A DNA stretch of 64,000 nucleotides, taken from NCBI GenBank assembly GCA_041660505.1, contig JBAZWG010000002.1, positions 868-64,867 on the forward strand, read 5' to 3'. Source of the DNA: Minisyncoccota bacterium. GTDB lineage: Bacteria; Patescibacteriota; Minisyncoccia; Phycocordibacterales; JACRKE01. The translations under genes and the position numbers were made by a program. Positions 2,339 through 47,886 of this stretch are shown here, piece by piece; the stretch's first letter is position 1, and the number at the start of each line of letters is the position of its first letter. The notes beneath the pieces are model-generated. The model worked only from the letters and a program-made list of their open reading frames with translations, had not been told where the DNA came from and made no database searches.

Positions 2339-3676
2339 ATGGAAAGAACATATATCAAGGATCTTGGCCAACAAATTGGCCAGGAAGTGCTAATTAAAGG
2401 CTGGGTTAACGGGCGACGCGATCAAGGCAAGTTGGTCTTCTTCGACTTTCGCGATATGAGCGGACTTGTACAGGGAGTAGTGCTTCCTAAAAGCTCGGCG
2501 ATGGATACGGCTAAGGACATCCGAAATGAATTTGTGGTAAAGGTAGAGGGGGTTGTAAATAAAAGGGCGGAAAGAAATATTCAAGCCGGACGCAAAAATG
2601 GCGACATAGAAATTGAGGTAAAGAAGATTGAGGTCCTGGCTGCGGCAGAGGCTTTGCCATTCGACATGTCATTCGAGAGTTTTAATTTCGATTTAACGAC
2701 ACAGCTTGATCACCGCGCCTTAATGCTCCGCCACCCGCGCTTACAAGCGATATTCAAAGTGCAAAGCGTCATCATAGATTCCTTCCGGGAATACATGAAG
2801 AGTCAGAACTTCTTTGAGTTCCAAGCTCCGTCTATCACTCCGGCCACTGCGGAAGGGGGCGCGGAGGTCTTTCAGGTTAATTATTTCGACAAGAAGGCAT
2901 ACCTTTCTCAATCTCCGCAACTGTATAAGCAGATTGTGATGACAGCTTTCGAGAGGGTCTTTTCGGTAAATAAAATCTTTCGCGCAGAGCCGAGTGCTAC
3001 CACCAGACATCTGACCGAGATTGTTTCTCTTGATGCCGAGATGGCATTCATCGACTCTTGGCTTGACGTAAGAGATATGTCAGAATCAACCGTGCGCTAT
3101 ATTCTCAAGGAGGTGAGTACCCGATGCGCAGATGAGTTGGCCATCCTTGGTGCCGAAATTCCAACCATGATTGACAAAACACCCACCCTGTCACTTACGG
3201 AGGTGCAAGAGAAAATATTTAAGGCCAGTGGCCGCGACTGTCGCGGTGATAAAGACCTTAATCCGGAAGATGAGCGGGCAATATGCGAAATTATTAAGGA
3301 AGAGACCGGTTCAGATTTCGTCTACGTCTATGGTTATCCGACTCGCCAGAAGCCCTTCTATGTCTACCCTAATCCGGAAAATCCAGAATTTAACGAGGGG
3401 ATGGACCTTCTCTGTCGCGGCGTGGAGTGGCTCTCCGGCGGACGTCGCATCAACGACTACAAGCAGCTTATGCAGCATGTAAATGAGTGGAACATGGACC
3501 CGGAGAAAATTTCTATGTTCCTGGAGGCCTTTCGCTACGGGGTCCCGCCAGAAGGCGGGTTTGCGTTCGGAGCAGAGAGACTTACGATGCAGATATTGGG
3601 ACTCAAGAATGTCCGAGAGGCCTCAATGTTCCCAAGGGACATGAATCGGATAGATACATTATTAAGCCAGGAGTAA
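2339..3676 (+). CDS. aspS: aspartyl-tRNA synthetase, archaeal/type-2 (short, probably non-discriminating)
   Basis: 445 aa with an N-terminal OB anticodon-binding fold (KGWVNGRRDQGKLVFFDFRD). Class II motif 2 FRAEPSATTRHLTE and motif 3 GGFAFGAERL. Overall collinear with archaeal AspRS rather than the ~590 aa bacterial form. Confidence 0.85.
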   Translation: MERTYIKDLGQQIGQEVLIKGWVNGRRDQGKLVFFDFRDMSGLVQGVVLPKSSAMDTAKDIRNEFVVKVEGVVNKRAERNIQAGRKNGDIEIEVKKIEVLAAAEALPFDMSFESFNFDLTTQLDHRALMLRHPRLQAIFKVQSVIIDSFREYMKSQNFFEFQAPSITPATAEGGAEVFQVNYFDKKAYLSQSPQLYKQIVMTAFERVFSVNKIFRAEPSATTRHLTEIVSLDAEMAFIDSWLDVRDMSESTVRYILKEVSTRCADELAILGAEIPTMIDKTPTLSLTEVQEKIFKASGRDCRGDKDLNPEDERAICEIIKEETGSDFVYVYGYPTRQKPFYVYPNPENPEFNEGMDLLCRGVEWLSGGRRINDYKQLMQHVNEWNMDPEKISMFLEAFRYGVPPEGGFAFGAERLTMQILGLKNVREASMFPRDMNRIDTLLSQE

Positions 3677-4413
3677 TGCCGCAATTCGCCGTCAAAAATG
3701 AAAAATTCGAGGGACCGCTCGGGCTTTTGCTTACCTTGATCACCGAACGCAAGATGCATATTTCGGAAGTTTCTTTGGCCGAGATTGCCGACACTTATAT
3801 TTCTTACGCGTCTAAGCTCGAGGAGTTCCCGATACACGAATCAGCCGAGTTCTTACTCGTCGCCTCGACACTCATGCTTATCAAATCGCGTTCGCTCTTG
3901 CCCGGCATAGTCATAACAGACGACGAGCAGAGCGAGATAAAAAATCTTGAGGAGCGCTTGAGGTTATACGCAATATATCAAGAGGCAGGCAAGAAAATTT
4001 CTGAAGAGTTCGGGGCTAGAGAATTACTATTACCATATGAACGTAAAGAAACTGTTATATTCGCACCGCCCGCAGACGGTTCGCTATGGCCAACAGGGTT
4101 GTCTAGAATAGTCATGAACCTGCTTAATGCCATACCAACTATCGCGCCTATCCCGCAGACGACAATCAAGAAGATAATGTCGCTGGAGGAGGCAATGCAA
4201 GGTCTGCTCACGCGCGTCACGCAGGGGATTAAACTGTCGTTTAGAGAAGCTCATGAGGGCAAGCACGGGCCGGAGCATAAGCTAAATATTGTTTTAAGCT
4301 TCCTAGCTCTGCTCGAATTAATGAGGAGAGGCAAAATAAGCGTCGAACAGCACAGCACCTTCCATGACATACTTATCCAACCGGAAGAAGTAAGCACACC
4401 GATATATGGATAA
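3676..4413 (+). CDS. scpA: segregation and condensation protein A (ScpA)
   Basis: Start reassigned to ATG 3676, which overlaps the aspS stop (TAATG), with AGGAG 3 nt upstream. N-terminus MPQFAVKNEKFEGPLGLLLTLITERKMHISEVSLAEIADTYISY is the canonical ScpA kleisin N-terminal motif. The longer ORF-track N-terminus (from 3487) is rejected. Confidence 0.8.
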   Translation: MPQFAVKNEKFEGPLGLLLTLITERKMHISEVSLAEIADTYISYASKLEEFPIHESAEFLLVASTLMLIKSRSLLPGIVITDDEQSEIKNLEERLRLYAIYQEAGKKISEEFGARELLLPYERKETVIFAPPADGSLWPTGLSRIVMNLLNAIPTIAPIPQTTIKKIMSLEEAMQGLLTRVTQGIKLSFREAHEGKHGPEHKLNIVLSFLALLELMRRGKISVEQHSTFHDILIQPEEVSTPIYG

Positions 4414-6208: not shown

Positions 6209-6217
6209 TGGTATAAT
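6209..6217 (+). promoter_or_regulatory. extended -10 promoter TGgTATAAT
   Basis: Perfect TGnTATAAT 10 nt upstream of an ATG at 6228 (a 16-codon ORF MEVRILEYKIGLDELK) and ~45 nt upstream of the 6265 ORF. The same GTGGTATAAT box appears at 35381-35390. Confidence 0.45.
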
Positions 6218-6264
6218 AGAAGATAATATGGAAGTCAGGATACTTGAATACAAGATTGGATTGG

Positions 6265-6582
6265 ATGAACTCAAATAATAACATGGAGAGAACAGCACTA
6301 TTCTACATGGCGAATGCGCACCCAGAGATTGGGAGGATGTTGAACTATGCCGAAAAGGGCGAGACGATTGCAGCCGAAGCGGCGCAACAACGCGCCCTTG
6401 CTATCGTTGATACGATACTTGCGCGGCACGATATCGCTCCCGCAGGTAGGGAGGAGTGGCGTGCCGTAAAAAGTCTTCTGATGGGTTATACGATCCTTGA
6501 TGAGTACGCACGCAAGGTATTGCGGAACTTTGCCGAACCGTTTTCTTACAAATTTATGTATGAATACGCACATGGAAAGTAG
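6265..6582 (+). CDS. hypothetical protein
   Basis: ORF-track 6244..6582 begins at a TTG; the first in-frame ATG is 6265 (alternative 6283). No recognisable motifs. The 3' end overlaps the scpB start by 11 nt. Confidence 0.35.
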   Translation: MNSNNNMERTALFYMANAHPEIGRMLNYAEKGETIAAEAAQQRALAIVDTILARHDIAPAGREEWRAVKSLLMGYTILDEYARKVLRNFAEPFSYKFMYEYAHGK

Positions 6583-12923: not shown

Positions 12924-13131
12924 GAGAGTGATGATCAGCGTATCCTTGTTAGAATTTATAGGCTGGCTAGCATTCGCAATAATCCTTGGAGGGGCCATTA
13001 CCATCTGGGCAATGGATAAGATAGGATAGCCCCCTAGCCGCCATGACCTTTTCCGACACACCGTGTCGCAAAAGATATATTCTACGACATGTATAGTATT
13101 ATACAATACCGCTCCCCTCTAATAAATAAGC

Positions 13132-13581
13132 CTACTGGAGGCCTTTGCAATTTGCGGCCGGTGTGTACCCCTTTGCTCGTGCCTCAGCCACTGAAGCAAA
13201 ATATATTTTATTTGCGGTACTGATCCGGTTAGCACCTCCGCACCATGGATAGTAATACTTGGTACCCCCTTTCGAGGCCACAAGAGTGCCTCCTGTCCCC
13301 TGCTTGGGTTCAGAAGGTCCAGACGCTTGGCTTCCGGGTTCCGTTTTGAGAAGCCGAGCGTCTTGAGCCGGTACGGGTTCGCTTATTGTTACGGCCGGCC
13401 TTTGTTTGTTTAGATTAGCAATAAGCCCTAGCTCGAATGAACCTACAGCCACGAAAATAACCAAAACAGCCAGAAACAGGCGTGAATCCAGGAAGTGTCG
13501 CACGGTGGACAGAAATCGGTCTAGGCGTCCTGTATTGCCCTCCTCGTCGAACTTGATTATTTCCCCCGAATCTGGTATCAT
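13132..13581 (-). CDS. membrane-anchored protein with a C-terminal Ada-like zinc-binding ('sunset'-type) domain
   Basis: Start set at ATG 13581, which a TGtGATATAAT box precedes by 7 nt on the minus strand. One TM helix (LFLAVLVIFVAVGSF), a Pro/Gly/Ser linker, and a C-terminal YYYPWCGGANRISTANKIYFASVAEARAKGYTPAANCKG that resembles the Ada N-terminal metal-binding fold. Confidence 0.55.
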   Translation of the reverse strand: MIPDSGEIIKFDEEGNTGRLDRFLSTVRHFLDSRLFLAVLVIFVAVGSFELGLIANLNKQRPAVTISEPVPAQDARLLKTEPGSQASGPSEPKQGTGGTLVASKGGTKYYYPWCGGANRISTANKIYFASVAEARAKGYTPAANCKGLQ

Positions 13582-13600
13582 AATACCCATTATATCACAC
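13579..13600. promoter_or_regulatory. bidirectional promoter with overlapping -10 hexamers on opposite strands
   Basis: Plus strand: TTATAT sits 9 nt before rpmA ATG 13605. Minus strand: TGTGATATAAT sits 7 nt before ATG 13581. The two -10 elements overlap in the same ~12 bp. Confidence 0.4.
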
Positions 13601-13604
13601 CAAT

Positions 13605-13877
13605 ATGGCACATAAAAAAGCAGCCGGTTCAACAAAAAATCTACGCGACTCAAACCCAAAGTATCTTGGCGTTAAGATTGGCGACGGTCAGACGGCTAAG
13701 GTTGGCAATATAATCGTCCGCCAGCGCGGAACTCGCGTCTTGCCGGGTAAGAACGTCTTAATGGGTACAGACCATACCCTTTTCGCCTCTAAGGACGGCA
13801 AGGTCAAGTTCGGCACGAAGCGCAAGACCCACTTCGATGGCACAATCAATCGCCTCCCTATCGTCAGCGTAGAATAG
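13605..13877 (+). CDS. rpmA: 50S ribosomal protein L27
   Basis: [24 protein letters not shown]...IIVRQRGT...GTDHTLFA is a near-canonical L27 sequence. Confidence 0.9.
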
Positions 13878-13879
13878 CC

Positions 13880-14320
13880 TTATAGCGCAGTTATAACCAC
13901 TCGAACATGAGTGGTTTTTTCGCCCGCCTTAAGCTCTACTTGATGCTCGCCAATATGCTTGAGCGGCTTCTCGAGGACAACGAATTCTGCCGGAACAAGA
14001 ATGCTGTGCTTTGCAAGCTCTGTAACTATCTCGTCTTTATGTATGCCGGCAAATAAACTGCCGGTCTCTGTTGCTCTGGATTTGAACGTTAGCGTCAAGC
14101 CTTCTATTATTTTGAACTTGGTGAGGAGTAGCTCTTCTGCTTTCTTTTTATCAAGATGACCTTCTTCGACTTTCTTTTTGGCCCAGGCCTCCTTAGCCGG
14201 TGTAGCGACTTCTGCCAGTCCGTTCTTTACGAGATAATTCCTGCCATAACCGTCAGACACATTCTTGATCTCGAATCTCCTGCCGACATCTTTTATATCT
14301 TTAAGTAAAACAACCTTCAT
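13880..14320 (-). CDS. rplI: 50S ribosomal protein L9
   Basis: [40 protein letters not shown] is the canonical L9 N-domain. Confidence 0.9.
13895..13920 (+). terminator. rho-independent terminator for rpmA (inside the 3' coding end of convergent rplI)
   Basis: aaccactc-gaacat-gagtggtt followed by TTTTTT; it lies within rplI codons ...EKTTHVRVV. Confidence 0.6.
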
Positions 14321-14327
14321 ATATTTA

Positions 14328-15644
14328 TTATTTCCAGAGGGAATTATCTTTTAATACTGCGAGGGCCTTATCGAACTGCGGATCAATCTTCTTGTCTACA
14401 TTATCTTTTGTAATCGTCACAGGATAGTCCGGTGTGAGTCCGGAGTCGGAGATTGATCGGCCCTTTGGGGTAAACCATCTGGCGATGGTTATTTTAGCTT
14501 CCGTATCGGTCGTTATTGGAATAAGTTCTTGCACAGAACCTTTACCGAAACTACGCTCGCCAATCAATTTCGCCACTCCCTCGTCCTGCAAAGCTCCTGC
14601 GAGAATTTCTGAAGCCGAAGCCGAACCTCTATCTATTAATATCGCTATCCGTGGAACACTCTTTAGTTGAGAAACGGTACCGCGACTTTTGTGCTCCTTG
14701 GTTATTGCATTCGCTTCGGACCCCGAACGTTCGCTTACAACAACCCTCCCTGCAGGCACGAACCAGCTCGCGATATCTACGGCAGAATCAAGATAACCGC
14801 CTGGGTTCCCGCGCAGATCCAGGAGGAGTTTATCAGACCCGGAATCGACGAATTTCTGGAGCGCTTGACGGAATAGGTCTGATGCCTGCGCGGAAAAATT
14901 ATATAGTCTGATAACAAATATTCCGTCGGGGCGTATACCCTCATGACCTTCCGCATTACCGATTATGCTCGAGTTCCCTTCTATGCTTATAGTCGGAATA
15001 ACTATGGTGTCGCGAGTAATTGTAATATCTCTTTGAGGTTCTCCGTTGCGGCCAATCGTAATCTTCACTTTCGTTCCCTTCTCTCCCCTGATTTGTTGCA
15101 CTGCGACATCAACAGGCAAATCGGCGGCGGATTTATCGTCGATTTTTACAATTCGATCGCCGGACTTGATCCCCGCTCGAAATGCGGGCGTATCCTTAAG
15201 CGGAGCTACGACGGTCAGAGCTCCATCACGAATGCCGATCTCCATACCGACTCCGCTAAAGCTGCCATTAACTTCGTCCTGGAATAACTTAGCTTCTTCC
15301 GGCGGGAAGAACACGGTATAAGGGTCCCCCAGAGACTTGAACATTCCCTCGATAGCGCCATAAACTCGATCTTGACTCGTAATTTTTTTTGCATCAGTGC
15401 CGGTGGCCATATTACCGAGCCCTTGATGTGTTGCGACATAATGGTCGTCAATAGCCTTCCATGCCTGCCAGAAGGGGGCGAAGTCGACATCCTGTGGTTG
15501 ATCCTGATTTTTATTGAGAACGCCCAGAACTTTATCCGTAAGCGGTTTGTTAGAATACCCGACATATGCGCCGGCCATGAATGACGCTCCTAAAAGGAGT
15601 ATGACTGCGCCTATTAATGTTACTTTCTTACCATAAGGTGTCAT
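14328..15644 (-). CDS. ctpA: carboxy-terminal processing protease (S41 family, PDZ-containing)
   Basis: N-terminal TM/signal, PDZ segment ([13 protein letters not shown]), S41 motifs LDLRGNPGG and [13 protein letters not shown]. Confidence 0.85.
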
Positions 15645-15696
15645 TTATACAGTATCTCATGTAGACGGGAAAATTTCAACGCGTTATACTATTCTA

Positions 15697-16617
15697 ATGA
15701 TTACCAGCTATGACATGCACGGTACCACCTGGGTAGACCTCGAGAAGCCGTCCAAGGATGAATTGTTCGGGCTTAAAGAAGCTTACAATATCCACCCCAT
15801 TGTATTGAACGAACTCAGTGAACCGTCTCTGCGCACAAAAGTTGATCTATATCCGAATTACGCCTATATGATCTTCCGCTTCCCTTCTCTCTTGAGTAAT
15901 GGGGATATCCACGACACGGAGGAGCATGAAGTTGACTTCATCGTCGGCAAGAATTTTTTGATAACGGCGCATTATGAATCGATAGAGCCGATTTACACAA
16001 TGGGCAAATATCTGGAGACCGGCGCAATGCTAAACAAAGACAGGCAAATCGAACATGCCGGCTTTTTATTCTACGCAATAATGAAGCGCCTTTATCAAGC
16101 ATCAGAAGATGACTTAATACACCTGCGCCATCATATTAAAGACACCGAGGAAGCAATTTTCGCCGGCAATGAACAGAAGATGGTGGAGGAAATTTCCAAG
16201 TTAAATAGAGTACTTATCAACTTCTGGTGGTGTACGCGAACGCACGATCAATTACTTTCTTCATTCGAAATCGTCGCCAGGAATTTCTGGGGAGAGTCTT
16301 TCCACTACTATCTTCATTCGTTATCCGGGGAGTTTTCTAAAATAGACAAAATGATAGATGGTTATAAAGAAGTCGTCATCGGCCTGCGCGACACGAACGA
16401 CTCACTTCTGACGACAAAAACTAATCAGACGATGAAGGTGCTCTCGATGGCGGCGGCCACTATCCTACCCATATCGGCGATAGCATCGATATTCGGGATG
16501 AATGTCCAGCATATGCCGTTCGTCGAACTTAAGTACGGGTTCTGGGCAGTCATTCTGCTTATGGTTTTGCTTTCTGTCGCCGGTATGGCATACTTCAGGT
16601 TCAAGAAATGGATATAG
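15697..16617 (+). CDS. corA: CorA-family Mg2+/Co2+ transporter
   Basis: C-terminal two TM helices with the GMN motif (IFGMNVQHMPF); 306 aa. Confidence 0.85.
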   Translation: MITSYDMHGTTWVDLEKPSKDELFGLKEAYNIHPIVLNELSEPSLRTKVDLYPNYAYMIFRFPSLLSNGDIHDTEEHEVDFIVGKNFLITAHYESIEPIYTMGKYLETGAMLNKDRQIEHAGFLFYAIMKRLYQASEDDLIHLRHHIKDTEEAIFAGNEQKMVEEISKLNRVLINFWWCTRTHDQLLSSFEIVARNFWGESFHYYLHSLSGEFSKIDKMIDGYKEVVIGLRDTNDSLLTTKTNQTMKVLSMAAATILPISAIASIFGMNVQHMPFVELKYGFWAVILLMVLLSVAGMAYFRFKKWI

Positions 16618-18035
16618 TTTTTACCAATACCCTATCTAGGCAAAAAGAGATTTTTAAGCCCATTCGTGAGAACGAGGCGGGTGTTTATTACTGCGGGCCG
16701 ACGGTTTACTGGACGCAACATATCGGCAATCTGCGAGGCGCAACCTGCGCGGATTTGATTGTGCGCGTTCTTAGATATAACAATTACAATCTTAATTTCG
16801 TTCGTAATTATACCGACGTCGGACATTTAACAGGAGACAATATTGGCGATGCCGACACTGGCGAAGACCGCATGGAGAAAGCGGCGAGACGCGAGGACAA
16901 GTCACCCGACGAGATCGCTAGAACATACATAGAAAGATATGAACAAGATACTAAAGAGCTCGATTTATTGGAGCCGACTCATAAACCGCGTGCAACAGAA
17001 CATGTTCAGGAGATGATAGAAATAGTAAGGACTTTACTGAAAAAAGGCTTCGCCTACGAGACTGATCTAGCGGTCTATTTCGATGTTTCCAAAGCTCATG
17101 ACTATACTCGCCTATCCGGTCAGGATTTAGATATGAACAGGCCTGGCGCCGGCACGGGTGATACGGAAGATCCAAACAAGAAACATCCCTTCGACTTCGC
17201 TATATGGTTCTTCGCCGCGGGCGCGCATGCAAACGCTCTGCAAACTTGGCCATCCCCCTTTCATTCAGTTTTGGTCAAGGACGGTACAGGTTTCCCCGGC
17301 TGGCACATAGAATGTTCGGCTATGAGTAAAAAGTACCTCGGCCCGACATTCGACATCCACATCGGCGGGATAGAACATATACCGGTGCACCACACCAACG
17401 AAATCGCCCAGAGCGAATCGGCGAACGGAGTGCGCTATGTTAACTATTGGCTTCACAATGAGCACCTTCTGGTCGATAACAAGAAGATGGCTAAGACAGA
17501 AGGTACTGCATATAGTTTGAATGAGGTTATAGAAAAAGGCTTTTCTCCCCTCTCGCTCCGATATCTATTCTTGACCGCGCACTATCGTTCTTCGCAAAAT
17601 TTTACTTGGGAGGCGCTCGGGCAGGCGGAGACAGCGTATAAAAAACTTCTGGGTTTTATCGAAGAACACAGATCAGACGAGCTGGGATCTATTATAGAAT
17701 CATATGAACAATCATTTCACACTGCGATCAATGACGATGTAAACATCCCGAAGGCGCTGGCGGTAATGTGGACAATGATTCGAGACCAGAAGCAGAAATC
17801 TGGAGATATAGTCGCTACTTTATATCAATTTGACAAAGCATTAGGGTTAAGACTTGCTTATACACAGGAAGATATGCCCGAAATTTCGCAGGAGCTTGCC
17901 GATTTACTAGCCCAGCGTAACACTGCGAGGGAAAATAAGGATTGGATTAAGGCCGACGAACTGCGCAATAAAATAGAGTCACAAGGATACATAATTAAAG
18001 ACACTGACAAGGGGTCAAAGTTGATTAAACGGTGA
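16608..18035 (+). CDS. cysS: cysteinyl-tRNA synthetase
   Basis: [17 protein letters not shown] (HIGH region), class I architecture, and a KMAKTEG variant of KMSKS; 475 aa. Confidence 0.9.
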
Positions 18036-18041
18036 TATACT
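18033..18041 (+). promoter_or_regulatory. extended -10 promoter TGaTATACT, 9 nt upstream of the dnaB ATG (near-leaderless)
   Basis: TGATATACT overlaps the cysS stop; ATG at 18051. Confidence 0.4.
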
Positions 18042-18050
18042 GATTGCCTT

Positions 18051-19427
18051 ATGTCAGAGCGCGGGCAATTTATAAAAAAGGTCAGACTTCCTCCTCAAAA
18101 CAATGAGGCTGAACAGGCGCTCCTTGGTTCTATTATGCTTAGTCCCTCGATACTCGAGGAGATAATGACGATAGTAACACCGCGATCCTTTTATTCAGAG
18201 AAGCATCGAGTCGTTTACGATGTGTGCGTAGAACTATTCCAGAAAGGCAGTCCCGTCGACCTCCTCTCTGTCTCAACTCGCCTAACAGAGCGGCAACTAA
18301 TCGATCGCGTCGGAGGCGCCTCATTCCTGACCGAGTTGGTTAACGTTGTACCGTCCGCTTCCAATGCGGAATATTATGCCAAAATAGTTCAGAAAAAATC
18401 CACACTGCGCGAACTTATCGACACCGCCGATTATATTTCTTCACTAGGATATAATGAAGAAGAGGACTTGGATATTGTACTGGATAAAGCCGAGAAAAAA
18501 ATATTTGAAATCGCGAACCTATCGCCTAAACAGAAATTCGTTAGCATCAAGTCAACACTTTCTGAAGCATGGGATAGAATAGAAAAATTGCACGAACATA
18601 CAGGAGAATTACGCGGAACGCCTACCGGCTTCCCCGAACTTGATAGTAAACTTGCGGGACTCCAAAACTCGGACCTGATCATTCTCGCGGCACGACCCTC
18701 GATGGGTAAAACCTCCCTAGCAATGGATATCGCCCGCCAGGCGGCAACTAAGCATAATATCACGGTCGGCATCTTCTCTCTCGAAATGAGCTCTCAACAG
18801 CTTGTAGACCGTATGCTTGCGGCGGAATCGTACGTAGATTCTTGGCATTTGCGTACCGGTAAATTATCCCGAGATGAAGATTTCGCCAAAATCCGTGACG
18901 CACTTGATAAACTATCGCGTGCGCCGATATTCATCGATGACGCACCGGATTCGAGTATAATTAATATGCGGGCAACCGCACGCCGGCTCAAGGCAGAGCA
19001 CAATCTGGGGCTTATAGTCGTTGATTACCTCCAGCTTATGGCGACAAGCAAAAGCTATGATTCATTAGTACAACAGGTAACCGAAATCTCGCGCTCGTTA
19101 AAGGGCCTCGCCCGTGAATTGAATGTTCCCGTGCTTGCACTTTCCCAGCTCTCGCGCGCCGTTGAGGCGCGCGGCGGAGAACCGCGCCTGTCCGACCTCC
19201 GCGACTCCGGCTCTATCGAGCAGGACGCGGACGTCGTAATGTTCATCCATCGCGAGGATAAGTATGATAAAGAGTCAACGCGCCCGAATGTCGCCAAGAT
19301 TATCATCGCCAAGCACCGTAACGGCCCGACCGGCGAGGCCGAGCTCTACTTCGACGAGAAGCGCGTTAGCTTCGTCAGTATCGACAAGTCAGGTAACGCC
19401 GGCGGCGATGGCTTTGGGGGGTTTTAA
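18051..19427 (+). CDS. dnaB: replicative DNA helicase DnaB
   Basis: N-terminal PPQNNEAEQALLGSIML, Walker A ARPSMGKTSLAMD, and RecA-like fold motifs (IVVDYLQLM, SQLSR); 458 aa. Confidence 0.9.
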   Translation: MSERGQFIKKVRLPPQNNEAEQALLGSIMLSPSILEEIMTIVTPRSFYSEKHRVVYDVCVELFQKGSPVDLLSVSTRLTERQLIDRVGGASFLTELVNVVPSASNAEYYAKIVQKKSTLRELIDTADYISSLGYNEEEDLDIVLDKAEKKIFEIANLSPKQKFVSIKSTLSEAWDRIEKLHEHTGELRGTPTGFPELDSKLAGLQNSDLIILAARPSMGKTSLAMDIARQAATKHNITVGIFSLEMSSQQLVDRMLAAESYVDSWHLRTGKLSRDEDFAKIRDALDKLSRAPIFIDDAPDSSIINMRATARRLKAEHNLGLIVVDYLQLMATSKSYDSLVQQVTEISRSLKGLARELNVPVLALSQLSRAVEARGGEPRLSDLRDSGSIEQDADVVMFIHREDKYDKESTRPNVAKIIIAKHRNGPTGEAELYFDEKRVSFVSIDKSGNAGGDGFGGF

Positions 19428-20155: not shown

Positions 20156-20467
20156 TTATTTTATCGAAGTGATTTTGACTTTGGTGTACGGTTGGCGATG
20201 GCCGTTTTTCTTCTTGTACCTTGACTTGGCCATATACTTCATGACGATAACCTTGTCGGCTCTCCCCTGTTCGACAATCTCTGCCTCTACAGTCTTGCCC
20301 GCTACCGTCGGCGTGCCGAGCGTTGATTTGTCGTCTTCTGATACCAAAAGCACTTCAGCGAAGCTGATTTTATCTCCCGCATTGCCCTCAAGCTTCTCAA
20401 CGCGGAAACTAGAGCCTTCAGTAGCGATATATTGCTTGCCCCCTGTCTTGATAATAGCCAATTTCAT
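20156..20467 (-). CDS. rplU: 50S ribosomal protein L21
   Basis: Start set at ATG 20467 (MKLAIIKTGGKQY...), the canonical L21 N-terminus; the ORF-track start adds 6 non-conserved residues. Confidence 0.9.
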   Translation of the reverse strand: MKLAIIKTGGKQYIATEGSSFRVEKLEGNAGDKISFAEVLLVSEDDKSTLGTPTVAGKTVEAEIVEQGRADKVIVMKYMAKSRYKKKNGHRQPYTKVKITSIK

Positions 20468-20504
20468 AGAAATACTATTATACACGATTTTACGAATTTC
20501 GCAA

Positions 20505-20576
20505 TGACCCTACAGGGAATCGAACCCTGATTACCGCCTTGAGAAGGCGATGTCCTAACCGTTAGACGATAGGGCC
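20505..20576 (-). tRNA. tRNA-Glu, anticodon CUC
   Basis: 72-nt cloverleaf read on the minus strand: GGCCCUA|UC|GUCU-AACGGUUA-GGAC|A|UCGCC-UUCUCAA-GGCGG|UAAU|CAGGG-UUCGAUU-CCCUG|UAGGGUC|A. 7-bp acceptor stem, GTTCGATTCC T-loop, U33, anticodon CTC. Close to E. coli tRNA-Glu. No encoded CCA. Confidence 0.8.
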
Positions 20577-21915: not shown

Positions 21916-23619
21916 TTATCTGTCCGGTGGAATATTGTAATAGTTTATCAAAAACTTTGTAAGACTCATAAACGGGTCGGTCAAGGTGGCGGAAGCATAC
22001 TGCGCCCCCTTGGGGTAGGTATGGAACAGGAATATCAGGAATCTGGGATTGTATGCCGGGAAGTAGCCAAAGAACGAGTGGAGGTATCTGTCATCATAAT
22101 ACTCTTTTGTAGCCGGATTGACCATCTGCGCCGTGCCGGTCTTGGCCGCGATACTGTAGTGTTCCATCTTGGCTTTGCCGTTTACGAGAGCTTTGTCGAC
22201 TACGGTTACGAGCATTTTGGTAATTGCAGTTGAGGTTTCGGGCTTCAGTATTTGTACACCCTGACTAAAGTCTGTCTTATCTACTATGCCCAGACGATAT
22301 TCTATTCTGTCCAATATGTGCGGTGCAACGAACCTGCCGCCATTCGCAAGCGAGGCGAGCGCAGTGGCCATCTGGATTGGTGTGACAGCTATCCCCTGCC
22401 CGAAGGCCGCTGTGGCATAATTAACATCTCGATTACTTGAGAGATTAGCAATCAGGCCGCTCGCTTCATTCGGCAATTCTATACCGGTCTTCTCGCCAAA
22501 TCCATAACCTTTCATATACTTCGCAAAAGTGGCGTTGCCTGTTTTCTGCTCCACGAAGACCATGCCGACGTTCAATGATTGATTCAAAACTTCCTGCATA
22601 TATATCCGACCTCGCGCCTTGCCGTCGTAATTGCTTATCTTCTTTTTATCGAGAATAATTGAGCCGGTGTCGGTGTACATCGTGTCGGGAGTAAGCACGC
22701 CGGAATCAATCGCCGCAGCCATTGCAAGAGGCTTCATTGTCGAACCCATCTCATACATATTTTCGACATTCGGATTCTGGAAGGCGCGCGGATCTTTGAC
22801 CGCATTGAACTCGTTAGGGTCATAATCTGGATATCCAGCCATGGCAACGATCTTGCCAGTCATTGGGTCAAGAATTATTCCTCCTATCTGATCGGCATGC
22901 CACGTTTTTTCCGTCGTAGCGAGTGTATCTTCCAGTTGCCTCTCTACTGTCGGTTCAACCGTCGTTACAATATCACCGTCTAGCTGATTCCCGCCAGCAG
23001 ACATCGCGGAACTTAGATTAGAGAATACTTCGGCGAAAAAATTCACATATAAGCCACCTGCGTGCCGAACAAGAATGTCGTCGAAGTAGGATTCGAGCCC
23101 GGCTCTACCGGATACCGTATCCCCCGTATCCTTCGATAATCCGACAAACCCAAGGAAGCCAGAACCGAGCCTCCCCCCGGGATAGTAGCGCTTTTTTTCC
23201 GTATAAATAGTAACACCCTTTATCTTTAGTGCCGAAATGTTGTCGGCATTCTTCTGGTCTATATTTTTTTCGATTACTTCGTAGGTATCGTCCTTTTTTG
23301 TCGCGCGGGCAAGAAATGTCTGTTCGTCCGTCGTCAGATTGCTCTTGAGCCTAGTGTAGACTTCCACGGCATTCATTAATAGTGCCGGATTCACCGCAAC
23401 GAAGTAGGTGTCCTTGAGTGTCGCCGCCGATACTCGCCCCCCGGTCTTTTCTTTAAAGTAAATATTCCCGCGTGAAAATTCGGCGGTTTCCGAATGAGCA
23501 TATTGACGATTGGCAACCTCCGCGAATTCAGCGCCGTTCAATACTTGAATATACGCAAGTCTGGCGACACATACTGCCGCAACCACAACGACAATTAGTG
23601 AGAGGAGTCGTACACGCAT
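21916..23619 (-). CDS. ftsI: penicillin-binding protein (FtsI-type class B transpeptidase)
   Basis: N-terminal TM, dimerisation domain, transpeptidase motifs STMKP and KTGTAQ; located downstream of ftsL. Confidence 0.85.
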   Translation of the reverse strand: MRVRLLSLIVVVVAAVCVARLAYIQVLNGAEFAEVANRQYAHSETAEFSRGNIYFKEKTGGRVSAATLKDTYFVAVNPALLMNAVEVYTRLKSNLTTDEQTFLARATKKDDTYEVIEKNIDQKNADNISALKIKGVTIYTEKKRYYPGGRLGSGFLGFVGLSKDTGDTVSGRAGLESYFDDILVRHAGGLYVNFFAEVFSNLSSAMSAGGNQLDGDIVTTVEPTVERQLEDTLATTEKTWHADQIGGIILDPMTGKIVAMAGYPDYDPNEFNAVKDPRAFQNPNVENMYEMGSTMKPLAMAAAIDSGVLTPDTMYTDTGSIILDKKKISNYDGKARGRIYMQEVLNQSLNVGMVFVEQKTGNATFAKYMKGYGFGEKTGIELPNEASGLIANLSSNRDVNYATAAFGQGIAVTPIQMATALASLANGGRFVAPHILDRIEYRLGIVDKTDFSQGVQILKPETSTAITKMLVTVVDKALVNGKAKMEHYSIAAKTGTAQMVNPATKEYYDDRYLHSFFGYFPAYNPRFLIFLFHTYPKGAQYASATLTDPFMSLTKFLINYYNIPPDR

Positions 23620-23641
23620 AACAAATTATGACGCACCCGGA

Positions 23642-25475: not shown

Positions 25476-25937
25476 CTACTTTATTTCTACAATAGAATAT
25501 GATGCTGTCTGGCCCGATGGGGTTTTTACGATAAATGTATCACCCGCTTTCTTGCCTATCATCGCCGCTCCAATAGGAGATTCGTTCGATATCTTGCCAT
25601 CTTTAGGCTCGGCCTCTTCCGAGCCGACGATACTGTATTCCACGGCTACACCGCCGTTCTTTTTAACCACAACCTTCGATCCGATATCTACTGTTGTGCC
25701 GTGCTTCTCTTTAACTATCACTGCTTGTTTCAGAACATCCTCGATCTTGGCAATACGTTCTTCAAGATCAGTAAAAGCCTCCCTGGCCTCTTGATATTCC
25801 GCATTTTCCGACAAGTCTCCAAGGGATTTTGCGTATTCGAGACGTCCGGCAACCTCCTGCCGTCCGGTCGTTCTTAAACGTTCAAGCTCTGCCGAAAGCT
25901 CGGCAAATTTCTCTTTTGTTAGATAGTCGTTTGACAT
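25476..25937 (-). CDS. greA: transcription elongation factor GreA
   Basis: N-terminal coiled-coil (LTKEKFAELSAELERL...) and C-terminal FKBP-like domain; 153 aa. Confidence 0.9.
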   Translation of the reverse strand: MSNDYLTKEKFAELSAELERLRTTGRQEVAGRLEYAKSLGDLSENAEYQEAREAFTDLEERIAKIEDVLKQAVIVKEKHGTTVDIGSKVVVKKNGGVAVEYSIVGSEEAEPKDGKISNESPIGAAMIGKKAGDTFIVKTPSGQTASYSIVEIK

Positions 25938-25970
25938 ATGGATATACTATATATCTAAAATGACATTGAG

Positions 25971-27635
25971 TCAACTTTTGATGTATTCCGGGGCGTGCCA
26001 GAACATCCAGTCGAAAAGTTGGCGCATCACGTAAACACCGCCAATGGTATTATGAACGGGACCGGCCTCCATAACTATCGTAAATGCATATTTAGGATGT
26101 TCATACGGGAAGAACCCGACAACCCATGAGTTTACCTTAGATTTAGAGACGCCGAGCTCGGCCGTGCCCGTTTTGGTTGCAACCTTTAAATAATCAAGAT
26201 TAAGCCCTTTACCTGTGCCGGTTACTGCGGACATGCGCATCCCTTCCTTTACAACATTAAAGTTCGCTTGCGGAAGATCTATAGTGCGTTGGATTTCCGG
26301 TGTCTCTGTCTGTAATATTGTCGGCCGAACCAGTTTGCCATTCGTAGCAAGCGCCGCGACAGCCCGCACGGCCTGAATAGGCGTCACAAGAAATCCATAT
26401 TGACCGATGACAGTATGGTACGTATTTCCTACGCGCCAAGCGGCGTCCTTCGGGAATGTCTTGGCCTTCCACTCCGGTGAAGGAATATTGCCCATCTTCT
26501 CGTCCGCGAATTCGATCTTCGTCGGTTCGCCGAAACCAAACATGCGCGCATATTTCTCTATATTCGTAATACCGAGCCCCCTTTGATCCTTATATCCGCC
26601 CCCTATCTGATAAAAATATTCGTCTGACGACTGCTCTATCCCCTGCCTCATATTTATCCAGCCGTGTGCTTCCCAGTCTTTAAAAATAGTAGGCTTCTCA
26701 GGGTCGTAGGGGTTCGGGATTACAAGTTGGCCTGTGCTTAAAATCTTTTTATCAGGTGAAATTATCCCCTCAGTAAGCGCGCCTATTGCCATGAATGGCT
26801 TAATAATAGAGCCGGGCGCATACAATCCAGACACCGCTCTGTCGAGGAATGGTTTAGCCGGATCACGCAACGATTGATTTATGGCAACCCTGTCATTGCC
26901 TGCAGAAAAAACTAGTGAACTGAATTCCGGATAACTTGTAATAGCCACGAGTTCCCCCGTCTCAACGTTCATAATTATTCCCGCTCCACCGGCAAATCCC
27001 CTGTCTGTAGAAACGGCTTTTATAATTTCGTACAGCTTCTGTTGAACTTTTGCATCAATAGAGAGAACGAGCGGTTGTCCGGAAATTGGATCTTGCTGAA
27101 CGCTTTCCGACAGCGTGTGCCCAAGGGCATCTGTCTCGGTTATCTTAATACCTGGCGTACCGGCCAGCCGAGTATTAAAAATCTTCTCAACACCGTCAAT
27201 GCCGACAGTTGTTGTCGCCATAGGAATAAATGAATCGCTTGTGGTAGCATCGTTCTGCCCGAGATAGCCGAGCAAATGACTGAATCCACCGCCCTCCATA
27301 TAATTGCGCTCCGAACCGTTGTTCCAAGCAAGAAGCGTCCCATTCTTATCTTTTATAGACGAACGTTCGGGAAAAACTGGGAAAAATCGCAGTGTATTAA
27401 CGAGACTCCGTTTATAAAAAGCCTGGCCTTGATTAATTTGCAAAGTGAAGAGTTTGCCTCCGATAAAAATTATCGCTAATAAAAAAAATGCCGCCAGGGT
27501 GTACAACGACTTCTGGGAAATCGGCTTTTCTATGCGGCCTTCAAATTGTTGAGTGTTGAAGGTCGGCATATTCCGGGCATCCAGGAAAATTTCGTCCGGA
27601 TATATTTCACCAGTGTTTCGTGATTTTCTTTTCAT
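25971..27635 (-). CDS. mrdA: penicillin-binding protein 2 (elongasome class B transpeptidase)
   Basis: Start moved to MKRKSR (27635); the upstream ORF-track extension overlaps mreD. Motifs SIIKP (SxxK), SSD, KTGTAE. Follows mreBCD. Confidence 0.8.
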   Translation of the reverse strand: MKRKSRNTGEIYPDEIFLDARNMPTFNTQQFEGRIEKPISQKSLYTLAAFFLLAIIFIGGKLFTLQINQGQAFYKRSLVNTLRFFPVFPERSSIKDKNGTLLAWNNGSERNYMEGGGFSHLLGYLGQNDATTSDSFIPMATTTVGIDGVEKIFNTRLAGTPGIKITETDALGHTLSESVQQDPISGQPLVLSIDAKVQQKLYEIIKAVSTDRGFAGGAGIIMNVETGELVAITSYPEFSSLVFSAGNDRVAINQSLRDPAKPFLDRAVSGLYAPGSIIKPFMAIGALTEGIISPDKKILSTGQLVIPNPYDPEKPTIFKDWEAHGWINMRQGIEQSSDEYFYQIGGGYKDQRGLGITNIEKYARMFGFGEPTKIEFADEKMGNIPSPEWKAKTFPKDAAWRVGNTYHTVIGQYGFLVTPIQAVRAVAALATNGKLVRPTILQTETPEIQRTIDLPQANFNVVKEGMRMSAVTGTGKGLNLDYLKVATKTGTAELGVSKSKVNSWVVGFFPYEHPKYAFTIVMEAGPVHNTIGGVYVMRQLFDWMFWHAPEYIKS

Positions 27636-29784: not shown

Positions 29785-31015
29785 ATCCGATTAGCTTGGC
29801 CATCAGTTCATCCTCGGTCAGTCCGATTGCGTCTGTATCCTTACGCGCTTTATATTCCAGCTTGCCAGAAGCCACAGTCTTCGCACTTATAATCACCCTA
29901 TGCTGGATACCTATCAAGTCGCTGTCGGCAAACTTCTCTCCGGCTGGTTTATCTCTATCGTCATACAAGACCTCTATTCCCTTCGCAGTCAATCTTTCAT
30001 ATAACTTATCAGCATCGGAACTGACATCGCCAAGAGATACTAAGTGTATTATAAAAGGCGACACAGCCTCCGGCCAGACAAGCCCTTTCTCATCCGCGAA
30101 GTATTCTACAATGACACCCATAAGTCGCGAGAGGCCGATACCATAACAACCCATGACGACCAACTCATCTTTACCTTCACTTGTTCTGTAGGTTAATTCA
30201 AACGGTGTCGTATATTTCGTCTTCAATTCGAAGATATTGCCAACCTCTACTGCCGACTTTACTATAAGATCTTTCGAACCGCATGATGGGCAAACACTCT
30301 GTTCCGCGATTATTTCTTTATTTATCGCAACATGGCACTTCTCACAAATAGAGATAGTATCCTCACCGGTCTCGAGCACCGTTTGGAACTCGTGAGAATA
30401 TTTAGAGAACGATCCGCCGGAGGCAAAGGTTATATAAGTATCTTTGCCGAGTCCTAATCTTTCATAAACCTTGGCATAAACACCCTTCATCTTTTCATAA
30501 TATTTAGCCAAATCGGCCTCGTCGGCATGGAAGGAGTACATGTCCTTCATAATGAACTCTTTACCGCGCAAGAGCCCTGACTTCGCGCGCAACTCGGCAC
30601 GGAATTTGTTCTGGAATTGATACACGGATTGAGGCAGGTCTTTATAAGAAGATATAAATCTCTTCAAGAGTGGGACAACAACCTCTTCATGGGTGGCGCC
30701 CAATACAAATTCTCTGTCTGACGCGTCTTTAAGCTTAAACAATGGATCGGGACCGGACCAACGGCCGGTTGTTTCCCAGTTCTCTTTAGGATGAAGGGCC
30801 GGCATATAGATTTCTTGCCCGTCGGCCTTATCCATCTCCTCGCGAATTATCTGCTCTATCCTATTCATTACTCGCAAACCAAGCGGTAAGAATGTGTATA
30901 CACCGGCGTGTAATTTATCAATAAAACCGGCACGGATAAGCAGGGTCGCGTTCTTAGACACCTCATCCTTTGGTGCCGTTTTGCTTGTTTTAGTGAAGAG
31001 TTGTGATTGTCGCAT
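29774..31015 (-). CDS. proS: prolyl-tRNA synthetase, bacterial-type but lacking the INS editing domain
   Basis: N-terminus MRQSQLFTKTSKTAPKDEVSKNATLLIRAGFI... collinear with bacterial ProRS. Class II motifs present (FRAELRAKSGLLRGKEF, GCYGIGLSRL). Only 413 aa versus ~570 for editing-competent bacterial ProRS. Confidence 0.9.
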   Translation of the reverse strand: MRQSQLFTKTSKTAPKDEVSKNATLLIRAGFIDKLHAGVYTFLPLGLRVMNRIEQIIREEMDKADGQEIYMPALHPKENWETTGRWSGPDPLFKLKDASDREFVLGATHEEVVVPLLKRFISSYKDLPQSVYQFQNKFRAELRAKSGLLRGKEFIMKDMYSFHADEADLAKYYEKMKGVYAKVYERLGLGKDTYITFASGGSFSKYSHEFQTVLETGEDTISICEKCHVAINKEIIAEQSVCPSCGSKDLIVKSAVEVGNIFELKTKYTTPFELTYRTSEGKDELVVMGCYGIGLSRLMGVIVEYFADEKGLVWPEAVSPFIIHLVSLGDVSSDADKLYERLTAKGIEVLYDDRDKPAGEKFADSDLIGIQHRVIISAKTVASGKLEYKARKDTDAIGLTEDELMAKLIGYEK

Positions 31016-31036
31016 GATATTTATGATACTACGCTA

Positions 31037-33547: not shown

Positions 33548-33592
33548 AATTTAAGTTGAAAGTTATAAAGTTACAAAGTTGAAAGTAATACG

Positions 33593-33603
33593 ATTATATC
33601 ACA
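33593..33603 (-). promoter_or_regulatory. extended -10 promoter TGTGATATAAT for frr, overlapping the holB stop
   Basis: Minus-strand TGtGATATAAT is the same 11-mer as upstream of the 13581 gene. It is followed by a ~40-nt leader rich in CTTTCAACTT repeats. Confidence 0.4.
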
Positions 33604-34255
33604 CAGCTTGCCCGCCGACGAGGCGGGGCAGATGTAAGGCCAAACTCTCAAGAATAAGTTTAATGGCCGGCGCCGTGTCGTGTATATATTGCTTGCTCTT
33701 TTCGAGCAGTTCGAAGGCTGTTTTGTCTTTTTTCGCCAGTTCCGGGTTCTTTGCATAATATATTTCTAAAGCAGACAATATTGCACCGGCATCGTATTTA
33801 GTCCGCGCGTGCACTTCATCACTCTCATCGCGCACGTCAAAGAATGTCTTTTCTAGATATTTCAACCGTTCGATCGGCGTTTTCCTCAGAAACTTTTCTG
33901 CGTCGAAAACTTCTTCACTTGGAAGCTTAGCTTCCAAGTCTTCTAAAATATGTAATCTTGAGCGGAGGGTTGGTAATAAGTCATCCGGATACGGCGTAAT
34001 GATAACAAACTTAGTTCCGGGCATTGGCTCTTCTAGTGTCTTGAGTAGAGCATTCTGCGCCTCTCGTCCGAAGCCGTACGCGCCGATACTGAATGTCTGT
34101 ACATCCCCGTCTGCCACTGCCAAGCTTGCCCTGCGGTGCAATTCATGTGCGTCGGCGATATCAAATGTTACGTAAACTTCATCAGCAGAGACGGGCTCGC
34201 CTTGTATCAAGAATGCATGGTGAGTTGAAAGTTGAAAGTTGAAAGGGGTTCGCAT
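33599..34255 (-). CDS. holB: DNA polymerase III delta' subunit-like (AAA+ clamp-loader subunit without a P-loop)
   Basis: HHAFLIQGE (degenerate Walker A region, as in delta') and ALLKTLEEPMPGTKFVIITPYPDDLLPTLRSRLHI (sensor-1 / SRC-like motif). 218 aa. Codons 5-11 (FNFQLST) are encoded by an (AGTTGAA)3 heptamer repeat. Confidence 0.65.
   Translation of the reverse strand: MRTPFNFQLSTHHAFLIQGEPVSADEVYVTFDIADAHELHRRASLAVADGDVQTFSIGAYGFGREAQNALLKTLEEPMPGTKFVIITPYPDDLLPTLRSRLHILEDLEAKLPSEEVFDAEKFLRKTPIERLKYLEKTFFDVRDESDEVHARTKYDAGAILSALEIYYAKNPELAKKDKTAFELLEKSKQYIHDTAPAIKLILESLALHLPRLVGGQAV
34222..34244. repeat. (AGTTGAA)3 tandem heptamer repeat immediately downstream of the holB start codon
   Basis: gagttgaaagttgaaagttgaaagg. 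It is related to (AGTTGGG)4 at the fmt 5' end and to AAGTTGAAAG motifs at 33551-33590 and 48301-48360. Confidence 0.7.
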
Positions 34256-34260
34256 TTTAC

Positions 34261-34289
34261 TTTATACTTTAAAACTTTGTAACTTTCAA
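34261..34289 (-). promoter_or_regulatory. sigma70-type promoter for holB (TTGAAA-17-TATAAA); TSS predicted at or next to the ATG (leaderless)
   Basis: Minus strand: TTGAAA, then a 17-nt spacer, then TATAAAGT ending 6 nt before ATG 34255. Built from AAAGTTN heptad repeats. Confidence 0.5.
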
Positions 34290-34293
34290 CTAT

Positions 34294-35319: not shown

Positions 35320-35381
35320 TACCCTACTATAGCAAACACTTTTTACTGTCCAAAGCTTAGCTTTGATAATTTCGATATGTG

Positions 35382-35390
35382 TGGTATAAT
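35382..35390 (+). promoter_or_regulatory. extended -10 TGgTATAAT, 6 nt upstream of the RAYT ATG (leaderless)
   Basis: gtggtataat-ttaaca-ATG. Confidence 0.45.
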
Positions 35391-35396
35391 TTAACA

Positions 35397-36077: not shown

Positions 36078-36094
36078 GCTTTGGACATTGGACC

Positions 36095-47833: not shown

Positions 47834-47886
47834 ACATTAATTATACTAAAATATGACCACGTTTAGTACGCATTTCCGAGACATGT

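Follow-up and report, generated by a model that had tools for sequence, protein, structure and literature searches.

Extended −10 promoter boxes abutting start codons and probable leaderless or near-leaderless mRNAs in a Parcubacteria-type genome

Leaderless transcription in bacteria is commonly recognized by a −10 box located about 6–8 nt from the starts of first genes, as in the 'group C' genomes of GeneMarkS-2, which accounted for 1028 of 4769 surveyed genomes, mainly of Actinobacteria and Deinococcus-Thermus, with no mention of the candidate phyla radiation, CPR (PMC6028130). In this group, 25–50% of the transcription units were predicted to be leaderless (167 of 262 genes mapped by differential RNA sequencing, dRNA-seq, in D. 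deserti), and the other genes were described as likely using ribosome-binding sites, RBS (PMC6028130). Group C genomes with genetic code 11 are nearly all high-GC, and the low-GC members with code 4, e.g., Mycoplasma, have 30–60% of genes predicted with leaderless transcripts (MetaGeneMark-2 preprint). Here, we describe boxes of this kind, with the core TGnTATAAT, in a gene-dense 64-kb window (the whole stretch of DNA analyzed, from contig JBAZWG010000002.1; GC 47.6%), where an earlier note had noticed them 6–10 nt upstream of the start codons of dnaB and several other genes and had read them as a sign of widespread leaderless or near-leaderless mRNAs.

The nearest relatives of the DnaB protein encoded in the window, with 57–65% identity, came from metagenome-assembled genomes (MAGs) labelled Parcubacteria, Paceibacterota, Nomurabacteria, Vogelbacteria, Lloydbacteria and Kaiserbacteria, and one of the window proteins was identical to NCBI WC764_03890 (Candidatus Paceibacterota bacterium). 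Judged by these protein similarities, the host genome is a Parcubacteria-type member of the CPR. For Parcubacteria, Tsurumaki et al. (2022, RNA; PMC9297842) found the anti-Shine-Dalgarno (anti-SD) sequence CCTCCT in only 48% of 16S rRNAs and inferred that Shine-Dalgarno (SD) helices do not form; their study, confined to rRNA and ribosomal proteins, put forward no other way of initiating translation.

Boxes before start codons and absence of Shine-Dalgarno sequences

Spacers are counted throughout from the nucleotide after the final T of the hexamer to the one before the ATG. With an objective start rule, whereby the first ATG of each non-overlapping open reading frame (ORF) of ≥80 aa was taken as the start, TANNNT at a spacer of 5–9 nt preceded 19 of 55 gene-start ATGs in the window (34.5%) versus 126 of 1860 other ATGs (6.8%; p=4.3e-9). 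At the 6-nt spacer alone, the motif was present at 11 of 56 window genes, compared to about 1.2 per position elsewhere. After strict TANNNT had missed AATAAT (rplI), GATACT (the gene with ATG 15644) and CATAAT (ATG 23619), a position weight matrix (PWM) of the extended −10 element was adopted; its matches in the window peaked at spacer 6 (10 versus about 0.5 per position farther upstream), and unsupervised expectation maximization on the 30 nt upstream of starts returned G-n-T-A-T-A-a-T with its positional peak at the same spacer. With curated starts, 24 of 60 genes had an extended −10 of ≥5 bits at a spacer of 4–10 nt, where 4.4% were expected (p=1.7e-17), the individual spacers being 6 (10 genes), 9 (4), 7 (3), 8 (3), 5 (2) and 10 (2). 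The curated starts were the same as the independent gene calls of the public assembly for every gene in the region of about 8.2–20.5 kb, and for mreB-2, def and the MerR gene, the start revisions are backed by Pfam profile coordinates. Overall, the box-before-ATG pattern is confirmed as real and far above chance.

The earlier note had also proposed that TATAAT-like hexamers should be enriched at a fixed distance from starts, and such enrichment was present both in the window and in 39 relatives. The comparison was made with the same pipeline, using genome-specific score thresholds, on the DnaB-flanking loci of the DnaB relatives, with 39 Parcubacteria-like loci (L001–L036, L041, L063 and L066; 515 genes), 14 other CPR loci (205 genes) and 27 non-CPR loci (333 genes), the last set including low-GC Bacillota. 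In the 39 Parcubacteria/Paceibacterota loci, TANNNT at spacer 5–9 preceded 36.9% of gene starts versus 8.7% of other ATGs (p=7.8e-66), and in the non-CPR loci 6.0% versus 4.4%, which was not significant. The ratio of −10 matches at spacer 5–9 to those at spacer 20–39 was 6.7 in the Parcubacteria-like set (p=4.8e-45), 4.8 in the other CPR loci and 1.2 in the non-CPR loci (p=0.24). The Actinomycetota loci of the control set, with 5 of 47 matches, are a poor positive control because the pipeline takes only ATG starts and an AT-rich PWM. Across the 39 loci, the matches numbered 64 at spacer 6, 15 at spacer 7, 31 at spacer 8 and 30 at spacer 9, over a background of about 4.4 per position; the distribution is thus bimodal, with a dip at 7 nt.

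The case that started the analysis, the extended −10 of dnaB, was found where the earlier note had placed it: TGATATACT occupies 18033–18041 on the plus strand (feature 18033–18053), with 9 nt to the ATG at 18051, and this start matches the independent gene call. The TGA that opens the box doubles as the stop codon of cysS. Most of the approximately 37 upstream regions of dnaB orthologues inspected carried a TGnTAnnAT-like box 6–9 nt before the ATG, including TGCTACAAT, TGCTAGAAT and TGTTACAAT, in flanking sequence that differs among the relatives; the exceptions were L026, with 25 nt, and a few loci with no clear box.

Promoter features were examined in an alignment of 161 start-associated boxes from the window and the relatives, for which PWM-matched boxes from other places in these genomes served as the comparison. 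Counted from the hexamer end, position −11 was a T and position −10 a purine; both lie outside the search model and extend the motif to T-R-T-G-n-TATAAT. Likewise outside the model was a weak upstream TTG (T 0.50, T 0.50, G 0.31), separated from the hexamer by exactly 17 bp, with TTGA at this spacing seen 11 times versus 1.3 expected. The TG extension itself (G 0.84, T 0.75) was above its frequency in the PWM-matched boxes; TG being included in the PWM, this matched comparison is the actual test of it. Moreover, a two-hexamer scan independently listed greA (TTGACT-17-TATAGT), rplU, def and the genes with ATGs 15644, 59731, 53087 and 62033, among others.

The presence of a box depended on the arrangement of the genes. 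Divergent genes had one in 62% (window) and 35% (relatives) of cases and co-directional genes with a gap of 15–49 nt in 50% and 48%, versus 16% and 10% of genes with a gap below 15 nt, where boxes were 3–5 times rarer. The divergent gene pairs in the window are 23, 52, 77 and 97 nt apart, and therefore their promoters overlap back to back, leaving no room for long leaders. In a start-agnostic test, which used the top 0.2% of −10 matches on both strands and ignored gene calls, an ATG at spacer 6 occurred 92 times versus a background of about 32 in the relatives and 13 times versus about 4 in the window, i.e., an approximately 3-fold excess; strong −10 matches showed no peak for GTG, TTG or CTG, and no peak appeared in the controls. 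By these features, the boxes are most probably genuine extended −10 promoters of the housekeeping sigma factor (sigma-70/sigma-A type), with the consensus T-R-T-G-n-T-A-t/c-A-A-T and a weak −35 TTG at 17 bp.

The absence of Shine-Dalgarno sequences, also remarked upon earlier, held in the larger sample. SD cores (4-mers) were found upstream of 3 of 56 window genes. Counted at −18 to −4 versus a control region, SD 4-mers reached 10% versus 7% in the Parcubacteria-like loci, 21% versus 9% in the other CPR loci and 33% versus 10% in the non-CPR loci. At tightly packed genes, SD was present in 7–11% versus 53% in the controls. The top k-mers upstream of boxless genes were GGAG/AGGAG in the non-CPR controls, and the pipeline is therefore able to detect SD where it is present; in the Parcubacteria set they were A/T-rich words only (TAAAA, AATAA), and no G-rich k-mer was enriched. 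A 16S rRNA 3′ end, sought in all DnaB-flanking loci for a direct reading of the anti-SD, was not found in any of them. In one relative of 55% GC (L018), both TGATAGAAT and AGGAGG are present in the 8 nt before the dnaB ATG, and promoter-at-start and SD may thus coexist in some Parcubacteria, which would fit the retention of the anti-SD in about half of them.

Transcription starts and translation initiation

Across 49 bacteria, the transcription start site (TSS) lies 7 bp past the −10 element (PMC12641261), by which measure genes with a 6-nt spacer have +1 at the A of their ATG. In the explanation we favor, RNA polymerase would start on this A in the 6-nt class, which is the commonest, and 1–3 nt earlier at spacers of 7–10 nt, resulting in SD-less mRNAs with no or almost no 5′ leader. 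Ribosomes would then recognize the 5′-terminal AUG directly, as on the leaderless mRNAs of Actinobacteria and Deinococcus. The downstream genes, which are also SD-less, would mostly be translated by reinitiation at packed junctions, a minority being served by A-rich, G-poor leaders. We assign a probability of about 0.8 to this explanation, i.e., promoter boxes at start codons giving leaderless or near-leaderless mRNAs. It is supported by the position of the boxes, their promoter features, their specificity to gene classes and their clade-wide occurrence, and the cautious 'near-leaderless' of the earlier note proved apt. The arrangement would cover about 40% of the genes and about 60% of the likely transcription-unit starts in the window genome. 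The nucleotide before the start codon is in line with it: a pyrimidine directly precedes the ATG in 75% of all box-associated starts versus 63% of other starts (p=0.005), in 69% of the spacer-6 class and in 94% of the spacer-9 class, an excess that fits the preference for a pyrimidine at −1 and a purine at +1.

An alternative accepts the promoters as real and fixes the TSS at the seventh position after the box, whereby only the spacer-6 genes would be leaderless and the rest would have leaders of 1–6 nt, with translation following another route independent of SD, such as binding of the 30S subunit to 5′ ends that are A/U-rich and unstructured. Position 7 is indeed an A in 50% of the spacer-8 class (p=0.03) and in 66% of the spacer-9 class (p=1.6e-4); these two classes are thus ambiguous, and the A suggests leaders of 2–3 nt. 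The second peak at spacers 8 and 9 in the relatives (31 and 30 versus 64 at spacer 6) and the 12-nt spacer of the gene with ATG 53087 point in the same direction. Nevertheless, the pyrimidine excess before boxed ATGs, strongest in the very spacer-9 class, fits initiation on the A of the ATG, and spacer 6 remains modal. A fixed TSS, which differs from the favored explanation in degree only, is therefore considered unlikely.

Several other points weigh against leaderless initiation as proposed here. Every TSS is placed by analogy with promoter geometry known from other bacteria. Spacers of 8–10 nt (dnaB, rplU and the ATGs 62131 and 6228) need initiation at positions 9–11 after the box, otherwise leaders of 2–4 nt result, and the enriched A of the spacer-9 class favors leaders of 3 nt. 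The PWM was built on E. coli-like frequencies, and 7 of the 60 curated starts were picked with the box already known; the objective rule is free of this circularity but noisier. The anti-SD loss ascribed to this organism is that of its group in the literature (PMC9297842). Finally, about 14 window genes (recR, mraZ, frr, HPF, TerC, rpmA and others) are leadered and have no SD, with A-rich, G-poor sequence upstream, and therefore a second SD-independent initiation route must exist.

Such A-rich, G-poor sequence directly before starts, the missing SD and the A/T-rich 5-mers (TAAAA, AATAA) upstream of boxless genes would also suit a different reading, in which the A/T-rich box is a non-SD translation signal in leadered mRNAs, as in Bacteroidota and the GeneMarkS-2 'group B', and no promoter at all. 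However, the group B motif stands by definition before internal and first genes alike (PMC6028130), whereas the boxes described here are present at 10–16% of packed genes and 35–62% of divergent ones. Moreover, it is RNA polymerase rather than the ribosome that contacts TG/TRTG and a TTG spaced exactly 17 bp away, and divergent pairs 23–52 nt apart are too close for upstream promoters plus leaders. A translation signal is thus very improbable. An artefact of base composition, AT-rich intergenic DNA or the start-calling rule is scarcely credible: although intergenic DNA is AT-rich, the first-ATG rule is crude and the two-hexamer matches exceeded shuffled sequence only modestly (50 versus 29.9 in one region, 27 versus 25.2 in another), the ratio of spacers 5–9 to 20–39 was 6.2–6.7 (p=2.8e-6 in the window, p=4.8e-45 in the relatives) and 1.2 under the same pipeline and genome-specific thresholds in the non-CPR set, low-GC Clostridia and Negativicutes among them. 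The start-agnostic test led to the same result, and across 8–20 kb the curated starts coincide with the independent gene calls.

As for the genes with no box, most are packed against the preceding stop codon, either overlapping it or with a gap below 15 nt; in the Parcubacteria set, overlaps or distances of less than 15 nt were seen in 37% of the co-directional pairs. Stop/start overlaps in the window measure 1 nt (TAATG), 4 nt (GTGA, ATGA), 8 nt (ATGCTTAA, ATGCATAG), 10 nt and 11 nt. Both junctions named in the earlier note, aspS/scpA and def/fmt, had been described as ATGnnTAA-type overlaps. This was correct for def/fmt, where ATGCTTAA at 50247–50254 (plus strand) couples fmt downstream of def, but the junction of the aspS-like gene with scpA, an internal gene, is TAATG, a 1-nt stop/start overlap at 3674–3678 of the plus strand. 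Packed junctions of boxless genes are consistent with termination-reinitiation coupling.

A more far-reaching proposal is that the lineage abandoned SD pairing altogether, with the promoter fixing the translation start via a terminal AUG in most units and the downstream cistrons reinitiating or using A-rich leaders. We hold this as a tentative view, to which we would give slightly less than an even chance. If true, it would match, on the functional side, the loss of the anti-SD that has been described in about half of the Parcubacteria, and it would explain why a 16-codon relic ORF, described below, is retained before a conserved gene, its stop 4 nt from the next ATG.

Individual boxes and neighboring elements in the window

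The 6-nt spacer was observed on both strands. On the plus strand, it separates TGGTATAGT from the ATG 1102 of a 105-aa hypothetical gene (1087–1104), which leads a pair coupled by ATGCATAG; CGTTATACT from the ATG 15697 of corA (15682–15699); TGGTATAAT from the ATG 35397 of the RAYT/Y1 transposase gene (35382–35399); GGGTACAAT from the ATG 47987 of the priA-like gene (47972–47989); and TAGTATAGT from the ATG 49682 of def (49667–49684), whose Pfam profile matches from residue 2. On the minus strand, the same spacing was found for rplI, encoding L9 (GGAAATAAT, 14318–14335, ATG 14320), with the promoter sitting within the 3′ end of the upstream protease gene; for this S41 protease itself (TGAGATACT, 15642–15659, ATG 15644), with TTGAAA at 17 bp and corA divergent at 52 nt; for mreB-2 (TGCTATAGT, 35317–35334), whose start was placed at ATG 35319 rather than at the TTG of the longest ORF at 35397, the Pfam profile matching from residue 10; for a giant protein of 3162 aa (TAGTATAAT, 47831–47848, ATG 47833); and for a 333-aa hypothetical (TTCGCA-17-TAGAAT with TG, 62031–62068, ATG 62033).

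Shorter spacers of 5 nt belong to a penicillin-binding protein gene of the ftsI type (CGTCATAAT, 23617–23633, minus strand, ATG 23619; moderate score), the holB-like gene (TTGAAA-17-TATAAA, 34253–34291, minus, ATG 34255), whose promoter lies in an arm of a 35-nt inverted repeat, and a MerR-family gene (AGGTAAAGT, 54770–54786, plus), whose start was moved to ATG 54784 because the helix-turn-helix (HTH) domain lies at residue 44 of the longer ORF. Spacers of 7 nt were found on the minus strand before a 149-aa hypothetical (TGATATAAT at 13589–13597; feature 13579–13597, ATG 13581, in agreement with the independent gene call), a class II aminoacyl-tRNA synthetase (TAGTATCAT, 31013–31031, ATG 31015, with TTGACA farther upstream) and a 161-aa hypothetical (TGCTATAAT; TAGAAA-18-TATAAT with TG, 59729–59768, ATG 59731). 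Those of 8 nt, also on the minus strand, precede greA (25935–25974, ATG 25937) and a 131-aa hypothetical (TGCTACAAT, 61004–61023, ATG 61006). Apart from dnaB, spacers of 9 nt occur on the minus strand before rplU, encoding L21 (TTGCGA-16-TATAAT at 20504–20477, feature 20465–20504, ATG 20467), immediately 3′ of tRNA-Glu, and before a class IIb aminoacyl-tRNA synthetase (TAGACA-18-TAGAAT, 54613–54654, ATG 54615), and on the plus strand before a 91-aa hypothetical (TGTTACAAT, 62113–62133, ATG 62131), which diverges from the gene at 62033 at 97 nt. A spacer of 12 nt belongs to a 399-aa hypothetical (TTCACA-16-TATAGT with TG, 53085–53127, minus, ATG 53087), which probably has a leader of about 5 nt. 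A plus-strand ORF at 20169–20507 was rejected as spurious, the minus-strand rplU being preferred by the independent gene calls.

Of these, the boxes of the 13581 gene, mreB-2, RAYT, the priA-like gene, the 59731 and 62131 genes, the holB-like gene (TATAAA) and the 16-codon ORF at 6228 had been listed before and were all present with the spacers given here. To them, at least 12 boxed starts were added, namely ATGs 1102, 14320, 15644, 15697, 20467, 25937, 31015, 47833, 49682, 54615, 61006 and 62033. The rpmA gene was claimed to have TTATAT 9 nt upstream of its start. The hexamer is there (13590–13595), but it makes a poor −10, with no A at hexamer position 2, and it is the reverse complement of the TATAAT of the neighboring gene. 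That neighbor, with ATG 13581, diverges from rpmA at 23 nt, and the TATA-rich segment between ATGs 13581 and 13605 reads as −10-like on both strands, strongly for the minus-strand gene and weakly for rpmA. Most likely, rpmA is transcribed from TTGATT-17-TATCAT with TG (13553–13581; feature 13553–13607, plus strand), with a leader of about 17 nt and no SD before ATG 13605. Also on the minus strand, at 13075–13106, TTGTATAAT and TAGAAT form strong boxes, with a two-codon ORF (ATG-TCG-TAG) 7 nt past them; a 111-aa hypothetical ORF (13004–12669), for which Pfam gave no match, lies about 85 nt downstream of the boxes. This may be either a leadered promoter or a leaderless mini-ORF.

The 16-codon ORF (6209–6230 on the plus strand, TGGTATAAT, 10-nt spacer, ATG 6228) has the product MEVRILEYKIGLDELK. 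In the relatives, a DUF5674 gene of 116–118 aa (MEIKILDHKI.../MDTKIKILDHKIG...) stands directly before a conserved 99-aa gene, and by this comparison the short ORF is an N-terminal deletion relic of the DUF5674 gene. At least L081 and L085 have a −10-like box 6–9 nt before the ATG of the DUF5674 gene. The relic ends 4 nt before ATG 6283 of the conserved gene, whose protein of about 99 aa has 28 homologues and no Pfam domain and forms a tight pair with DUF5674 in the relatives (loci L081 and L083–L085). For this gene, the NCBI annotation uses ATG 6265 (105 aa), while the homologues favor ATG 6283 (99 aa); relic and gene together span 6228–6582 of the window. The 407-nt gap after 6152, which contains both, gave no Rfam match at E≤1 when screened for an RNA gene.

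Two repeat structures were observed close to boxed genes. Inverted repeats of 35 nt at 33554–33588 and 34257–34291, 86% complementary, flank the short holB-like gene, whose Pfam match begins at profile position 88. They are built of AACTTTCAAC-like units, of which the window has 6 copies versus 0.34 expected. The promoter of the holB-like gene is contained in one arm, and the frr leader contains the other; a cassette, an invertible segment or a long-range RNA structure could be involved. The frr gene, encoding the ribosome recycling factor, appears to be leadered, the leader being made of the inverted-repeat arm: TGATATAAT at 33593–33601 (minus strand), which shares nucleotides with the stop codon of the holB-like gene, stands about 45 nt before the frr ATG (33547). 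Farther along, perfect 19-nt inverted repeats at 35347–35365 and 36069–36087, each a hairpin (CAAAGCTTAGCTTTG), bracket the Y1-transposase/RAYT gene (35397–36077), an arrangement expected of repetitive extragenic palindromic (REP)/IS200-type elements; the TGGTATAAT box of RAYT begins 17 nt past the left hairpin.

The TerC-family gene (ATG 56211, minus strand) is preceded by about 170 nt (56212–56385) with no convincing ORF, following a TAAAAT box near 56385. Tested as a possible riboswitch, this leader gave no Rfam match, yybP-ykoY included, and its folding energy was no better than that of shuffled sequences (z=0.33). In the relatives L081 and L082, TerC genes of the same length lie about 50–60 nt from a divergent neighbor. 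The 3162-aa ORF (38345–47833, minus) has a local GC of 0.50–0.53 versus about 0.46, and its TAGTATAAT promoter at spacer 6 is of the leaderless type; 18 nt past it, there is a 743-aa ORF with TTG or GTG as the only candidate starts. According to Pfam, the window encodes division and cell-wall functions (mraZ, rsmH, ftsL-like, PBP, mur ligase, mraY, ftsW and murG) together with mreB/mreC, dnaB, recR, cysS, greA, frr, def/fmt and the ribosomal proteins L9, L21 and L27. The tRNA-Glu gene (20505–20576, minus strand) was the sole RNA gene detected.

Significance and comparison with known systems

Extended −10 elements (the '−16 region', TRTGn) are a feature of Bacillus subtilis sigma-A promoters, and in Bacillota such promoters normally drive leadered, strongly SD-dependent mRNAs. 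The boxes described here have the same T-R-T-G-n-TATAAT form with a weak −35 at 17 bp but, unlike their Gram-positive counterparts, abut the start codon.

The architecture as such is known in other phyla; here it is seen in a CPR lineage, combined with an essentially complete lack of SD. No report of leaderless mRNAs in CPR, Patescibacteria, Parcubacteria or Saccharibacteria was found in the open-access literature, although an earlier mention elsewhere is possible. If correct, the proposed explanation would extend leaderless-dominated expression to the CPR, a very large section of bacterial diversity in which ribosomes are reduced and hardly any member has been cultured, and would offer a testable mechanism for SD-less translation in Parcubacteria, a point left open by Tsurumaki et al. 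(PMC9297842). It also has a practical side. The longest-ORF rule misplaces at least 7 of the 60 window starts (mreB-2, RAYT, the priA-like gene, def, an aminoacyl-tRNA synthetase, 13581 and 61006), and SD-based start callers would have no signal here, so that in MAGs of the CPR the annotation of N-termini, signal peptides and short genes is at risk. In the few genetically tractable Patescibacteria, the best design for an expression construct might be one in which 6 nt separate a TGnTATAAT box from the ATG.

Among the described systems, group C, with Mycobacterium tuberculosis and D. deserti, is similar in having the −10 near the starts of first genes and in the large share of units concerned, about 60% here. 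It differs in that SD is absent here from internal genes too (7–11% versus 53% in the controls), in the mid-GC genome, and in the full TGnTATAAT/TRTG box followed only by ATG and not by GTG, compared to the minimal TANNNT. The Mycoplasma-type group C genomes with code 4 resemble the present case as reduced genomes outside the high-GC range, but belong to another phylum with another genetic code, and an RBS model was still obtained for their other genes. The Bacteroidota/FCB (Fibrobacteres-Chlorobi-Bacteroidetes) 'group B' shares SD independence and the A-rich, G-poor sequence before starts, as in the approximately 14 leadered genes of the window; its motif, however, stands before internal as well as first genes and cannot be a promoter (PMC6028130), whereas here the promoter is mainly at first genes. 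Finally, the anti-SD loss of Parcubacteria (PMC9297842) concerns the same lineage and matches the lack of SD in the mRNAs; the promoter-at-start architecture would supply the initiation mechanism that was missing from that work.

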